Made by a program: the position numbers and the translations under genes
Shown here: piece after piece, positions 4,069-17,342 of the stretch
Position numbering within the stretch: the stretch's first letter is position 1
Layout: every line of letters begins with the position of its first letter
Assembly (NCBI GenBank): GCA_030612025.1
Contig: JAUWOR010000011.1
Span: 1 to 25,838, forward strand
Direction: 5' to 3'
Length of the DNA: 25,838 nt
Origin: Dehalococcoidia bacterium
GTDB taxonomy: Bacteria; Chloroflexota; Dehalococcoidia; GIF9; AB-539-J10
Notes under the pieces: model-generated
The model's database searches: none
Told to the model about the DNA's origin: nothing
What the model saw: the letters and a program-made list of their open reading frames with translations, nothing else

Positions 4069-4188
4069 GAAGCTGTCTAATTTCGTCTCAGATTGAAAAC
4101 TAGATTTGCCTCGTCCGGATTCTCGTAGTGCGACCCTTTAGGGTCGTGCACGAGTCCGAAGCCTCGCACTACATTTCTAAACACTCTC
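4069..4188 (-). mobile_element. MITE-like element carrying a GTAG REP doublet (copy 1)
   Basis: Minus strand reads GAGAGTGTTTAGAAATGTAG...CTAC...AAATTAGACAGCTTC, the same layout as 11107-11240. Core 4125-4172 has a 9-bp IR GTAGTGCGA/TCGCACTAC with two internal hairpins. Confidence 0.65.
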
Positions 4189-6180: not shown

Positions 6181-9100
6181 TCAGCACTTGTTTATCTGTG
6201 TTCCTATCTCTTGAGTAACCGCTCCTAGCACTTCCGGCCATTTATCCCCAAGACGTTTAGTATCTAATCTCATCTGTCTGGTGCTGACCTCGATGGCATC
6301 TTTGTATTCTTGCCAGGAAGGTAGATTAGTCAACGTTTTCCCGTCAGCCAGGTTTAATACCACTTGTTTTCCTCGAGTATAGATAGATTCTACTCCCACC
6401 TTAGCTGCCAGTATTTTTATTTCTATTATATAAAGCAAGTTTTCCACTGGCTGTGGCAGGTCACCGAATCTATCTTTGAGTTCTTGTGTCATATCTTCTA
6501 TTTCCTCGGTACGCTCTATCTTTGCTAGCCGGTGGTAGAGACTTAAGCGAGTGCTTAGATTTGGAACATACTCTTCAGGTATATAGGCAGTTAGTGGTAG
6601 GGCTATGCTGGGGGAAGGCAACTTGGCTTCCTTTGGCTTAACTTCTCCAGCTTGCTTTGCTTTTAATTCATCAACCGCCTCAGCTAGCAATTGGCAATAG
6701 AGGTCGAAACCTATGGCGGCTATATGACCACTTTGTTTAACACCCAGAAGGTTTCCCGCCCCCCGAATCTCCAGGTCTTTCATAGCTATGCCGAATCCAG
6801 CACCAAGCTCTGTAGCCTCGAAGATGGTCCTGAGCCGCTTATAAGCTTGAGGAGTCAGTTGCTTAGCTTTATCAAAGAGGAAATAAGCATGAGCTTGGTT
6901 GGTGCCACGGCCTACCCTGCCTCTTAGCTGATAAAGTTGGGTTAAGCCGAATTTATCAGCTTGGTCGACAATTAACGTGTTAACATTGGGCATATCCAAA
7001 CCCAACTGAATGATGGTAGTGGTGACCAAGATATCGTAGTTACCAGCGATGAAATCTGCCATTACCCTTTCCAATTTCTCCTCGGGCATTTGTCCATGAG
7101 CTATGGTTATTTTCGCTTCAGGCACCAGGGTTTGTAATTTGCTGGCAACCAAGGCAATGCTCTGAACTCGATTATGAACAAAGAAAACCTGACCATTTCT
7201 CTCTAACTCGCGCAGTATTGCCTGCCGCACTAAAGTATCATCATAGGTGCCAACGTAGGTCTTAATAGATAGACGTTCCTCAGGTGGTGTTTCCATAAGG
7301 CTCATATCCCTGATCCCGGTCAAAGACATGTGAAGGGTGCGTGGAATGGGGGTAGCACTCAGGGTAAGAACGTCCACCTCTTTTCTCATTTGCTTAAGCT
7401 TTTCTTTTTGCACCACGCCGAATCGCTGTTCCTCGTCAATTATCACCAGTCCTATGTCTTTAAAGGCGACATCCTTCTGCAACAAGCGGTGAGTGCCAAG
7501 GCATATATCAACAGTGCCATTAGCCAAGCCTACAAGTATTTTCCTTTCCTTTTCCGAGGAGCAAAAGCGGCTTAACATTTCTATTCTTAAAGGGAAAGCT
7601 TGCAATCTTTGGCTAAAGGTAGTGAAATGTTGCTGAGCTAGCACGGTGGTGGGGACCAGTATAGCCACCTGTTTATTATCCATCACCGTCTTAAAGGCAG
7701 CACGTAGAGCCACCTCAGTTTTACCATATCCCACATCTCCGCAGATAAGCCGATCCATTGGCTTAGTTTTTTCCATATCCTCTTTGGTAGCCACTACTGC
7801 CTCAGCCTGGTCTGGTGTTTCCAGGTAAGGGAATGAGGCTTCCAGTTCTTGTTGCCATAATGTGTCAGGAGAGAAGGCAAAGCCAGGTGTTATCTCTCTA
7901 GTGGCATAAAGGGCGAGCAGCCCTTGAGCAATATCAGCCACTGATTCTTCCACCCTTCTCTTTGTTCTCTGCCATTCCTGAGTCCCCAGCCGGCTCAGGG
8001 TTGGTGGTTGGTCACTGGCGCCGATATAGCGGCTGACACGCCCGATCTGCTCGGTAGGCACATAGAGCTTATCACCGGCAGCATATTGCAAAACAAGATA
8101 TTCCCGTTCAGTCCCCTCAGTGGATATTTTGGTTAAACCGCTAAATTTGCCGATGCCGTGGTCAACATGGACTACGTAATCACCGGGACTTAGCTGTGGG
8201 AGAAGCCAGCTAGCGCGTATGGGAGTCTTTCTACTCAGGCGTCTTTGTTTTACAAAGCCAAAGAGCTCAGCATCGGTAATCAGGTTTAGCTCTTCGTCCA
8301 TCACCCAGCCTTTAGCTAGCGAACCTTGAAGCAAGGTGATTGAACTACGAGGTGACACCTGCTCTATTTTTGAAGTGGGAGAAGTATGGACGTCTCTCTC
8401 CCGAAGAAGCTCAGCTAAACGATTTGCCTGATGGCTAACTATGATCAGGCGTTGTTTTTCTCGAATCATCTGCTTAGCTGCCTTGAGAAACCTTTCCAAA
8501 TTGCCTCCGTAGCTTTGAGGCAAGGTAAAAGGCAGGGCTTGTATATAATTCCCAGTAGCCGGGGCCAAAGTAGCATCCCAGGGTTCTAGGATTAAATGTT
8601 GCTTTGCCTTCACCTTCAATTGTAATTCCCCCCAAGTAAGATAGGGAGAAGGAAAGCCTTGGGGCAGCTCACCATTTTGCCATTTTACCCTTCTTAGTTC
8701 TTGAGTCTCCTTGTTTAACCTTTCAATGATAGCTTGGATTTCCTCAGGAGCATCGAGGATGATGAGGGCAGTATCGCCTAGGTAATCAACGATGCTTTCA
8801 CTATTGAACAAAGGGAAATAGAACTCAGCACCTGAGAACCATTGCCCTTGCTGTAGTCTTGCTATATCTTCTTTGAAGCGCTGTTTCATCTCAGCAGTGC
8901 AGCTATCTAAATTTAAGGCATTGGTTATTTGCTTTGCTCGGGATATAAGGACTTCTTTGGCTGGAGTAATGGTTAGCGAGGATATTGGTTTGGTTGAGCA
9001 TTGGTTCTCGGGGTTGAATAGCCGCATGCTCTCTACTTGGTTACCCCAAAACTCTATTCGAGCTGGTGATTGGCTGCAAACGGGGAAAATATCAATGATG

Positions 9101-9858
9101 CCACCCCGGCGGCTTAGCTGTCCGGGCACTTCAACCACATCCTCCATTTCATAGCCCATATTTTGCCACCTGCGTAGCAGCTCCAGTGGCTCAGCAGTCA
9201 TGCCTTGCTGTAGCACATGACAGGAAGTGGCGAAATCCTCCCGGGGGATAGTTTTGCTTATCACTGCCAGGGCGGAAGCTATTATCAAAGGAGGACGTTC
9301 AACTGTCACCCCTGCTCCTGACCCCTTCACTTTTTTGTCATTCTGAGGGAGCACTTTGGTTTCGCTCAGTGTAAACTCCGCGACCGAAGAATCTCGCTCA
9401 GGGTAAACTTTATGAGGGGAAGAGTCTCCAGATTCTTCGTGGGGCCTGTCCTGAGCGTAATGAGATTGCTTCACTTCACTCGCAATGACAGGGGAAGCAA
9501 GAGGCTCATAAAAGGCTAAAGTGGCTAATGCTTGTAATCTTTCCACCATCGTATTGCTGGGATAAGAAACAAAATACTCATAAGGCGAGAAATCGAGTTC
9601 GGGGAACCCGTGCAAATTAGCTGAAGGCGGACACCAAGCTTGAAGTTGCTCCTGGAGCCTTTTAGCGCCTTCGGGCTGAGCAGTTATTACCATCAGAGAC
9701 CGGTTAAGCTCTTCATAGAGGGCAGCTACGAGATAAGGCTCGGCGGCATCAAGCACTATTACCTTATGCTCGTCTTTAGTAGTAAGTAGCCCCTCAACCA
9801 ATTGCCTATAGACGGGCACTTCTTTAAGTAAAGAAAGCAAGCAAGAAAGATTCATCAC
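6181..9858 (-). CDS. mfd: Transcription-repair coupling factor, with an in-frame insertion of about 62 aa near the N-terminus
   Basis: RGGIIDIF, CarD/RID domain (GDYVVHVDHGIG), MDRLICGDVGYGKTEVA, DEEQRFG, QLRGRVGR and a TRCF C-terminal domain. Confidence 0.97.
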   Translation of the reverse strand: MMNLSCLLSLLKEVPVYRQLVEGLLTTKDEHKVIVLDAAEPYLVAALYEELNRSLMVITAQPEGAKRLQEQLQAWCPPSANLHGFPELDFSPYEYFVSYPSNTMVERLQALATLAFYEPLASPVIASEVKQSHYAQDRPHEESGDSSPHKVYPERDSSVAEFTLSETKVLPQNDKKVKGSGAGVTVERPPLIIASALAVISKTIPREDFATSCHVLQQGMTAEPLELLRRWQNMGYEMEDVVEVPGQLSRRGGIIDIFPVCSQSPARIEFWGNQVESMRLFNPENQCSTKPISSLTITPAKEVLISRAKQITNALNLDSCTAEMKQRFKEDIARLQQGQWFSGAEFYFPLFNSESIVDYLGDTALIILDAPEEIQAIIERLNKETQELRRVKWQNGELPQGFPSPYLTWGELQLKVKAKQHLILEPWDATLAPATGNYIQALPFTLPQSYGGNLERFLKAAKQMIREKQRLIIVSHQANRLAELLRERDVHTSPTSKIEQVSPRSSITLLQGSLAKGWVMDEELNLITDAELFGFVKQRRLSRKTPIRASWLLPQLSPGDYVVHVDHGIGKFSGLTKISTEGTEREYLVLQYAAGDKLYVPTEQIGRVSRYIGASDQPPTLSRLGTQEWQRTKRRVEESVADIAQGLLALYATREITPGFAFSPDTLWQQELEASFPYLETPDQAEAVVATKEDMEKTKPMDRLICGDVGYGKTEVALRAAFKTVMDNKQVAILVPTTVLAQQHFTTFSQRLQAFPLRIEMLSRFCSSEKERKILVGLANGTVDICLGTHRLLQKDVAFKDIGLVIIDEEQRFGVVQKEKLKQMRKEVDVLTLSATPIPRTLHMSLTGIRDMSLMETPPEERLSIKTYVGTYDDTLVRQAILRELERNGQVFFVHNRVQSIALVASKLQTLVPEAKITIAHGQMPEEKLERVMADFIAGNYDILVTTTIIQLGLDMPNVNTLIVDQADKFGLTQLYQLRGRVGRGTNQAHAYFLFDKAKQLTPQAYKRLRTIFEATELGAGFGIAMKDLEIRGAGNLLGVKQSGHIAAIGFDLYCQLLAEAVDELKAKQAGEVKPKEAKLPSPSIALPLTAYIPEEYVPNLSTRLSLYHRLAKIERTEEIEDMTQELKDRFGDLPQPVENLLYIIEIKILAAKVGVESIYTRGKQVVLNLADGKTLTNLPSWQEYKDAIEVSTRQMRLDTKRLGDKWPEVLGAVTQEIGTQINKC
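9304..9490. repeat. Nested palindromic elements (TGTCATT family) inserted in frame in mfd
   Basis: TGTCATTCTGAG (9336-9347)/CTCGCAATGACA (9479-9490); CGAAGAATCT (9385-9394)/AGATTCTTCG (9430-9439); CGCTCAG(T/G)GTAAACT twice; TGTCACCC at 9304. These match the intergenic elements at 9877 and 17286. Confidence 0.85.
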
Positions 9859-9876: not shown

Positions 9877-9951
9877 TGTCATTGCGAGGAGCTTTGCGAC
9901 GAAGCAATCTAGGGGGAGGAACAAGATTGCTTCGCTTTGCTCGCAATGACA
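9877..9951. repeat. 75-bp palindromic element (TGTCATT family)
   Basis: Perfect 12-bp terminal IR TGTCATTGCGAG/CTCGCAATGACA and an inner 11-bp IR CGAAGCAATCT/AGATTGCTTCG. Confidence 0.92.
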
Positions 9952-11106: not shown

Positions 11107-11240
11107 GAGGCTGTTTAAAAATGTAGTTGCCCAATTCATTGGGCGATCGTGCCTGATTTATCAGGCAACTACAAAAATTTGGGGGTGAAAACTCTCCAAA
11201 ACGCCCAAAATCGAACGGGAAAACAAAATTAAACAGCCTA
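11107..11240 (+). mobile_element. MITE-like element carrying a GTAG REP doublet (copy 2)
   Basis: Perfect 11-bp terminal IR AGGCTGTTTAA (11108-11118)/TTAAACAGCCT (11229-11239). Core 11122-11173 has a 10-bp IR TGTAGTTGCC/GGCAACTACA with hairpins GCCCAAT-TC-ATTGGGC and TGCCTGAT-TT-ATCAGGCA. Confidence 0.75.
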
Positions 11241-11256
11241 TAAACAGAAGAGAGGT

Positions 11257-11502
11257 GTGAAAAAGATGATTGCTAAAAAGGAAGCAAGAAGAAAACGCTG
11301 CAAGAATTGCAATAGAATATTGGATCGCATTTGGTTTACGGCACTGATGACGGAGGAATGGTCATGGAATGGGGAAGGCTATAACGAATGCACCGCAAGG
11401 CATAGTCTTGTTACTGATGCGGAACAGCCTGTATGTTGCCCATACTGTGGCAAGGTTGTCGGTACAGGATTGGACCTCGGTTTTGGGGTAGGCTACAAAT
11501 GA
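11257..11502 (+). CDS. Small hypothetical Zn-ribbon protein
   Basis: Two Cys pairs (CKNC ... CCPYC); purine-rich RBS-like sequence upstream. The start may be GTG 11257 or ATG 11266. Confidence 0.65.
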   Translation: MKKMIAKKEARRKRCKNCNRILDRIWFTALMTEEWSWNGEGYNECTARHSLVTDAEQPVCCPYCGKVVGTGLDLGFGVGYK

Positions 11503-17285: not shown

Positions 17286-17342
17286 TGTCATTCTGAGCGT
17301 AGTGAAGAATCTTAGAGACCCTTCGCTTTGCTCAGGGTGACA
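17286..17342. repeat. 57-bp palindromic element (TGTCATT family)
   Basis: TGTCATTCTGAGC/GCTCAGGGTGACA ends (two G-T pairs), inner GAAGAATCT/AGACCCTTC; shares CTTCGCTTTGCTC with 9930-9942. Confidence 0.88.

Follow-up and report, generated by a model that had tools for sequence, protein, structure and literature searches.

An in-frame mosaic of small hairpin repeats inside the mfd gene of a Dehalococcoidia bacterium

The window analyzed here is a stretch of 25,838 nucleotides from a Dehalococcoidia bacterium (assembly GCA_030612025.1, contig JAUWOR010000011.1, positions 1 to 25,838), which carries mfd, the gene for the transcription-repair coupling factor. The N-terminal part of this gene holds an extra segment that is composed of small repeat units, and the same kinds of units lie in intergenic palindromes of the window (Table 1). 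The Pfam domain set of the protein is complete (UvrB_inter, CarD_TRCF_RID, DEAD, Helicase_C and TRCF), and Mfd chains in the PDB match it with E-values of 1e-210 to 1e-225. A first-pass annotation, made from the letters of the window, had described the segment as palindromic elements inserted in frame into each other like Russian dolls. In the following, G000 denotes this genome (1.4 Mb), G001-G004 genomes of the same genus, L loci or alleles, and X metagenome runs.

Table 1. Position of mfd, of the parts of its extra segment and of two related intergenic elements in the window
Feature	Position	Strand	Evidence or remark
mfd (transcription-repair coupling factor, 1225 aa), host gene	6181..9858	-	open frame, Pfam domains, PDB matches
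In-frame extra segment, aa 119-185, ~67 codons	9304..9504	-	ortholog alignment, DNA comparison, low pLDDT
Unit b (TGTCATTGCGAG-N6-GAAGCAATCT), forward relative to mfd, read as VIASEVKQS	9463..9490	-	
Module h with a-type 3' box (GCTCAGGACAGGC..GAAGAATCT), read as AQDRPHEES	9430..9456	-	36-nt hairpin nested here in other alleles
3' box of reversed c-type unit (GGAGACTCTTCC), one side of the split host unit	9418..9429	-	
Guest, long a-type composite (TGTCATTCTGAG..GCTCAGTGTAAAC..GAAGAATCT..GCTCAGGGTAAAC), reversed relative to mfd, read as ..YPERDSSVAEFTLSETKVLPQND	9336..9408	+	
c-type terminus TGTCACCC, other side of the split reversed c unit	9304..9311	+	
Intergenic palindromic dimer A, a b unit and an inverted b unit with a 13-nt spacer between them, just upstream of mfd	9877..9951		DNA fold -24.1 kcal/mol, z -7.1
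Intergenic palindromic dimer B (a unit and inverted c unit)	17286..17342		DNA fold -14.4 kcal/mol, z -5.3

To place the segment among its orthologs, Mfd sequences were collected from 30 related genomes and the N-terminal regions of 17 were aligned. Eight of the 17, the more distant ones, have an empty site, with 2-8 residues between a helix ending in ..LATLAL and a strand PPLIV. Repeat-derived mosaics occupy the site in seven others, four of them in the host genus and three in other genera of the family. L014 carries a single reversed half unit there, read as RLLRHAVPRNDK, and L012 has an insert unrelated to the repeats. Additionally, a fifth genome of the genus (G002, allele L005) shows an in-frame mosaic that is readable up to a run of N. 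The insert is kept across at least four genera. At the DNA level, the segment between the two anchors measures 72 nt in the empty alleles and 273, 273, 231, 303, 264, 219, 186 and 141 nt in the bearers. All eight repeat-bearing alleles that were aligned are in frame, their seven different lengths are each divisible by three, and their make-up also comes in seven versions. The first-pass annotation had given a stack of 187 bp that leaves the 1225-aa frame open; the frame is indeed open, but 187 nt is not divisible by three, and by DNA comparison with the empty site the real extra segment amounts to 201 nt or 67 codons. That the segment is derived from repeats and is not Mfd-like, as had been claimed, agrees with the empty sites.

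Contigs of the Logan resource from the cold-seep run X1 cover positions 9038-9390 and 9398-9699 with zero differences. Therefore, both outer junctions of the insert stand in an independent assembly, which speaks against a misassembly, although X1 is possibly the sample from which this genome was obtained. Positions 9391-9397 are not spanned by any single Logan contig. Over the repeat modules (window 9350-9510), the summed contig depth exceeds that of the mfd flanks by factors of tens to hundreds in X1, X2, X5 and X10, which are cold-seep, marine-sediment and vent metagenomes, and the unit family is therefore common to many organisms of these communities.

Every part of the Mfd insert recurs in the genome as units of 28-60 nt, and blastn matches on other contigs tile the whole 187 nt of the stack; insert positions 33-92, for instance, match C15:4354-4413 (93% over 60 nt) and C11:63979-64037 (92% over 59 nt). 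The 12-13-mers of the modules are present in 3-41 copies per strand of the 1.4-Mb genome compared to 0.01-0.1 expected, and the matches are therefore far beyond chance. The units are oriented, each with a 5' box and a 3' box: TGTCATTCTGAG..GAAGAATCT in unit a, TGTCATTGCGAG..GAAGCAATCT in unit b and TGTCACCCTGAG..GAAGGGTCTC in unit c. Read in gene orientation, the stack consists of a b unit, the h module with an a-type 3' box, and a reversed c unit that is split by a reversed a-type composite. The correspondences to the intergenic palindromes that had been noticed in the first reading were all recovered. Positions 9463-9490 and 9924-9951 are identical in 25 of 28 nt by blastn (87% over 31 nt). 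The boxes TGTCATTCTGAG (9336-9347) and GAAGAATCT (9386-9394) recur exactly at 17286-17297 and 17304-17312, with a spacer of 38 nt in the insert and 6 nt in the dimer. Further, TGTCACCC at 9304-9311 is the reverse complement of the end at 17335-17342, and the module GCTCAG(G/T)GTAAAC occurs twice, at 9364-9376 and 9396-9408.

In 104 of 119 generic units, the variable 4-mers of the 5' and the 3' box complement each other, compared to a mean of 40 and a maximum of 56 when the pairing is shuffled, and they fall into four covarying classes (TTCT/AGAA, 49 units; TTGC/GCAA, 41; CCCT/AGGG, 11; TCCT/AGGA, 3). This points to a small hairpin formed by the paired boxes, bearing in mind that copies of the same class are not independent and that the fold of a single unit is predicted to be weak. 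The Mfd stack as a whole folds no better than its shuffles (-29.5 versus -27.1 kcal/mol, z -0.72) and therefore represents pieces of palindromes, not a single large palindrome. The majority of strict units score as solo with patterns that miss diverged partners, while elements A and B are head-to-head dimers. An Rfam scan of the window yielded no family at the gathering threshold.

Alleles of the Mfd site differ in what stands between the boxes. Between the boxes of the reversed c unit we found an a-type composite in L001, L002 and L004, and a repetitive extragenic palindrome (REP) of the GTAG type, read as MAGMNPATT, in L003, L005 and L007. A GTAG-type REP is also present in a contig of run X2, in which 118 nt (9306-9423) are swapped for 40 nt, a net change of 78 nt that keeps the frame. 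In contigs of runs X5 and X10, a 28-nt hairpin and an 8-nt duplication at 9441-9448 add up to a net change of 36 nt, and the frame is again kept; this 36-nt hairpin is nested in module h in L003 and L004 as well. The nested 28-nt hairpin with its duplication belongs to a different family from the units described here, which we refer to as TGTC units after their 5' tag. A joint of 9395 to 9435 in contigs of X1 and X2, at which 39 nt are replaced by 7, was not counted as an Mfd allele, because its shorter side measures 33 nt and it is probably another repeat copy. Since the alleles show elements within the spacers of other units, they support the Russian-doll reading, and the nested insertion claimed earlier holds in this respect, but not in the sense of one palindrome formed by the entire stack.

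A maximum-likelihood tree of the part of Mfd downstream of the insert (17 rows) is compatible with a single clade of the seven mosaic bearers, though this clade is weakly supported (51/69) and occurs in 45% of the bootstrap trees. The bearer of the half unit, L014, is the sister of an empty allele (support 99/97). The likeliest history of the site comprises at least two entries at one codon position, followed by turnover in place. Element A is present in G000 and G001 and absent in G002-G004. A second site of Mfd is also occupied by repeats: G004 has a repeat-derived peptide (..GVYPERDSSVAEPVLSGEILRFAQND..) in place of the segment of aa 305-352 (window ~8800-8945). This helical segment of ~45 residues is confidently modelled, present only in closer relatives and missing from more distant Mfd proteins.

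The genome contains 135 repeat clusters with a total of 8,323 nt. Thirty of these clusters are located inside open reading frames (ORFs) with at least 30 residues on either side, and 33 of 157 strict units (21%) lie within ORFs of at least 200 aa. A Pfam comparison of 20 host ORFs, which did not include Mfd, two ORFs of 241-246 aa and five shorter than 150 aa, identified all 20 as conserved genes. They include dnaE, uvrA, polA, topA, purH, hisG, leuC, aroC (two sites), carA, pgi, purC, nadC and ispH. Compared to solved homologs, IspH shows a net insertion of 12 residues (..SVIASEAKQ..) and AroC one of ~20 residues at one site; at the first AroC site, a loop as long as the repeat-derived segment has been replaced. 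The b unit is read in three sense frames (VIAS, 10 units; SLR, 7; CHC, 2). With a crude gene model, units in ORFs strongly favor the sense direction (b, 19 versus 2; a, 9 versus 3), and the preference is weaker, 40 versus 22, for solo units that lie between co-directional genes. The exact b-unit pattern was found in at least 123 places of a species-representative genome collection; the hosts among the matches listed are Chloroflexota, Patescibacteria, Bacteroidota, Desulfobacterota, Planctomycetota, Nitrospirota, Proteobacteria, Bacillota and others.

Further host genes were compared between genomes of the genus. At one codon position of aroC, G000 has a single b unit (C8:25588-25615) and G004 (L244) a 116-nt mosaic of c, a and g modules, which ends with the same 3' box, GAAGCAATCT; this is a second case of turnover in place. 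The unit in topA (G000:C8:40131-40158) is nearly intact in G003, 3 nt longer and diverged (..GCTTCTTGCTCGTGGCTAACAT) in G001 and G004, and the site is 18 nt shorter in G018. This series may represent a unit decaying into ordinary coding sequence. Comparison of the C8 sites with the genomes of the genus yielded differences in composition and no clean empty sites.

In an AlphaFold2 model of Mfd residues 1-420 (11 sequences; mean predicted local distance difference test score, pLDDT, of 70), residues 119-185 have a pLDDT below 50 and no secondary structure. In the N-terminal UvrB-homology module, the insert follows a helix (100-114), precedes a strand (190-194) and lies before the UvrB-interaction domain (216-302). 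The loop position that had been anticipated for it is thus what the model predicts. Between this genome and its nearest relative (L001 versus L002), the insert is 89% identical in nucleotides and 79% in amino acids, while the rest of the gene reaches 94% and 93%. The simplest reading of the model and these values is a tolerated, weakly constrained loop. A new protein function does not follow from a segment that the model renders disordered and that diverges more quickly than the remainder of Mfd.

The first-pass annotation had also proposed a mobilizing gene flanked by the repeats, of either the REP-associated tyrosine transposase (RAYT) or the small GIY-YIG type. For the GIY-YIG type this was found in relatives. 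There, a gene of 95 aa (Pfam GIY-YIG, 63 bits; no NCBIfam family) stands between a forward b unit, 20-50 nt before the ATG, and a reversed b unit directly after the stop codon, with clear examples in L028, L035 and L037. Matches to this gene are present in 138 of 401 genomes sampled from the class, a tally that includes the unpublished G274, with up to 12 matches per genome. Of the 30 best GIY-YIG loci of the class, 24 have TGTCATTGCGAG (allowing up to 2 mismatches) no more than 150 nt upstream of the gene, and 24 have its complement no more than 150 nt downstream (both sides, 20; either side, 28); control windows 750-900 nt away from the genes yielded 0/26, 1/26, 0/27 and 0/27. Where the units of this genome begin with TGTC-AT.., relatives often have CGTCATTGCGAG. 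In the reverse direction, a GIY-YIG gene was found within 400 nt in 2 of 80 repeat loci of other phyla (L079 and L103), and the relation from repeat to gene is loose, as would be expected of a family in which copies without the gene prevail. In this genome, a GIY-YIG copy without the first 23 residues is located at G000:C4:187484-187699, with a GTAG REP just upstream and a reversed b unit after it.

The RAYT alternative was rejected, since both Y1_Tnp genes of the genome (C4 and C18) have GTAG REPs of their own, instead of TGTC units, on their flanks. The GIY-YIG pseudogene adjoins a RAYT gene (G000:C4:187350-187700; L023 ~1000-1390), and two hairpin-repeat systems collide there. A back-to-back pair of GTAG-type REPs (GTAGTGCGACCCTTTAGGGTCGTG / CACGAGTCCGAAGCCTCGCACTAC), of the type found around the RAYT gene at G000:C4:187854-188141, lies in the window at 4125-4172. 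A second GIY-YIG gene, encoding a protein of 150 aa with the domain in its N-terminal half, is inserted between leuC and leuD (G000:C8:118600-119050; L022 1297-1749, minus strand). It was set aside, as it belongs to another subtype and no units directly flank it; the leuC gene beside it contains an in-frame a-type stack. Positions 11107-11257 of the window hold a repeat of ~132-150 nt with dozens of matches of 80-95% across the four other genomes of the genus.

We compared the units and the nuclease with published systems, drawing on portions of three papers. Small GIY-YIG proteins of the Ssn family cut single-stranded DNA beside an oriented hairpin repeat, NTS/SRM (CGTCATTCCC..GGGAATCYRG) (Chenal et al. 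2025, Nat Commun 16:2388, PMC11893778). According to the same source, these repeats flank the ssn gene and are scattered through the genome, an architecture remarked there to resemble insertion sequences, and 2% of the NTS copies of N. meningitidis lie inside genes. The system described here is similar in that a ~95-aa single-domain GIY-YIG gene is flanked by inverted oriented hairpin repeats with many solo copies elsewhere. The units share the oriented hairpin with a conserved 5' flank that characterizes SRMs, and their 5' tag (C/T)GTCAT and 3' ..AATC.. flank resemble those of the NTS. Unlike the published repeats, they have a 5-bp stem and a spacer of 6-14 nt or longer (up to 38), 21% of the strict units are in ORFs compared to the 2% in N. 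meningitidis, and this genome contains only a truncated nuclease gene.

The second relevant family are the CGTC-tagged REPs, in which the tag is often TGTC and the stems start with AT (Di Nocera, De Gregorio and Rocco 2013, PMC3733652). In the account of that paper, they include dRS3 of Neisseria (CGTC-1), the Rickettsia palindromic elements (RPEs) RPE-6 and RPE-4 are equated with CGTC-1 and CGTC-4, and the repeats occur in 5 phyla, mostly in alphaproteobacteria, with no dedicated transposase or enzyme found. Intragenic copies are mostly located in genes of DNA synthesis and repair (uvrA, polA, dnaE), and grouped repeats encode 43-82 residues (PMC3733652). Our units have the same unpaired TGTC tag, AT-first stem, in-frame intragenic copies and repair-gene hosts, and elements A and B are head-to-head dimers of this form. 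They differ in stem (5 bp versus 8-9 bp), in spacer (6-14 nt, up to 38, versus loops of 4-5 nt) and in tail (CT(C) versus CCA).

[quoted passage not shown] By this description, the repeats kept in frame within conserved genes (Mfd and the 20 of 20 tested ORFs), with peptide segments added, are RPE-like. They are unlike RPE-1 in that the blocks are 28-60 nt long, all three sense frames are read and the stacking order varies. The mosaic clusters of small hairpin repeats, and the gene for a single-strand-specific enzyme flanked by its own repeats, are reminiscent of bacterial interspersed mosaic elements and of REP doublets (REPINs). Unlike in the REPIN/RAYT system, the RAYT genes here are flanked by GTAG REPs, which appear as guests in the Mfd stacks of relatives. 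As to MITE features, the dimers have inverted ends, and an 8-nt duplication was seen only around the nested hairpin of the other family.

The units and the nuclease, the latter typed by its Pfam GIY-YIG match, work like the Ssn/SRM and CGTC-REP systems and very probably form a divergent class among them. The first-pass annotation had seen a parallel to RPEs in an apparently unrelated lineage. This is not an undescribed system, since the units show the tag and stem start of a CGTC/TGTC REP superfamily that includes RPE-4 and RPE-6 (PMC3733652), and the pairing of such repeats with a GIY-YIG gene has been published as Ssn/SRM (PMC11893778). The kind is already known; new are the lineage, a unit class that the SRM pattern misses, the high genic share, and the nested, polymorphic in-frame turnover in Mfd. 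The main texts of PMC3733652 and PMC11893778 contain no mention of mfd, of CGTC repeats in Chloroflexota or of in-frame SRMs, and a term search of the main text of the latter found neither RPEs, Chloroflexota nor in-frame copies. Literature searches with the unit and peptide strings, and for GIY-YIG with MITE or terminal inverted repeats, Dehalococcoidia repeats and COG2827, returned no description of these exact units or peptides.

Therefore, we propose, with a probability of roughly 75%, that the 67 codons of Mfd are a mosaic of divergent TGTC/CGTC REP/SRM-type units in a tolerated in-frame loop, with an Ssn-type nuclease as the likely spreader. In the suggested course of events, hairpin units would enter one permissive loop of the N-terminal UvrB-homology module and stay in frame, the stack would grow as further small elements land in the spacers of units already present, and exchange between dispersed copies would probably also reshape it, with selection purging every frame-breaking version. 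By analogy with its characterized relatives, which cut single-stranded DNA by their own hairpin, the 95-aa GIY-YIG enzyme would be the most likely agent of spread.

Several results weigh against this proposal. Single units, folded with DNA parameters, reach -0.8 to -3.7 kcal/mol with z-scores that are not significant. The published SRM pattern, HGTCWYN(0-2)YYVSBRHN(0-5)WNVSBRGN(0-2)RNCYNB, has 5 matches in G000, compared to 2-8 in five shuffles, and matches none of five test strings (four real units and one consensus-like string). Searches with a GIY-YIG query found no intact Ssn-type gene in G000, the four other genomes of the genus (68-86% complete) or G015; the alleles differ within the genus all the same, and the turnover may therefore not need the nuclease. 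The authors of the Ssn work leave open whether any Ssn/SRM system is mobile (PMC11893778). Comparison of filled and empty alleles showed no clean target-site duplication at element A, where a duplication is unreadable because the empty alleles hold 15 unrelated bases and the flanks have diverged. Finally, it is from the conserved frame that the segment is taken to be translated, most likely as a disordered surface loop; among 22 runs, none was listed as an RNA holder.

The strongest competitor overlaps with this proposal and differs only in the engine of change: after one old insertion, the stack would have been reshaped mainly by homologous or microhomology-mediated exchange, such as gene conversion or template switching. 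It would account for outer boxes that stay constant while the interior is swapped, as in Mfd, where the b unit and the GGGTGACA end are kept, and in AroC, where the 3' box is kept while the 5' mosaic of G004 differs. The lack of an intact nuclease gene among the matches in the genus and the possible single clade of the seven mosaic bearers also fit. Yet the 8-nt duplication that borders the 36-nt hairpin allele is of the kind left by insertion, L014 has an independent half unit at the same site next to an empty sister allele, and units are found at dozens of unrelated sites, which they must therefore have entered by some route. We consider exchange as the main engine possible, with the odds against it.

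In our view, it is very unlikely that the insert has been selected as an addition with a function in Mfd, such as a linker in the UvrB-homology module by which autoinhibition or the recruitment of UvrA is tuned. The bias of intragenic REPs towards DNA synthesis and repair genes (PMC3733652), the presence of units in mfd, uvrA, polA, dnaE and topA, and the persistence of the insert over several genera would suit such a role, but its composition varies between close relatives and even inside one habitat, the model predicts no structure at low confidence, the amino acid identity lags behind that of the rest of Mfd, and metabolic genes (aroC, ispH, purC, leuC and carA) bear units too. Removal of the segment before the mature protein, at the RNA or protein level, with another cause for the conserved frame, is highly improbable: the sense bias of the units in ORFs could stem from a role at the RNA level, but the window has no Rfam match, no intein or intron signatures were seen in the peptide, and allele length differences that are all divisible by three would be needless if the segment were removed before translation. 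A repeat-caused assembly artefact, to which the high repeat depth (up to several hundred times the flanks) and the unspanned 9391-9397 might point, has a next to negligible chance given outer junctions bridged without differences by contigs of another assembler and eight other assemblies in which this codon position holds an in-frame repeat insert, a mosaic in seven of them and a half unit in one.

Going beyond the proposed mosaic, the TGTC units might be true single-strand mobile elements that insert in fixed orientation into the sense strand of genes where it is exposed as single-stranded DNA and favor the spacers of resident units. We regard this as rather unlikely. If it were true, permissive loops like that of Mfd would be landing pads that generate in-frame peptide variants in populations, the Ssn-type GIY-YIG nuclease would represent a mechanistically new class of transposase-like enzymes, and the CGTC REPs, long orphans, would gain a mobilizing enzyme along with some RPEs of Rickettsia.

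The finding ties together the literatures on RPEs, CGTC-tagged REPs and Ssn nucleases, which are treated apart in the portions of PMC3733652, PMC11893778 and PMC10969869 drawn upon here. The polymorphic Mfd alleles, always in frame, are natural evidence of hairpin units entering new places, a point that is left open in PMC11893778. Since the published SRM pattern misses this unit class, surveys built on the pattern undercount the system, and gene callers and aligners will take such inserts for odd low-complexity loops. In a free-living sediment Dehalococcoidia with a genome of 1.4 Mb, units are present in at least 21 conserved genes, five of them for replication or repair. Rickettsia-style selfish repeats that are, most likely, translated are thus not limited to intracellular symbionts.

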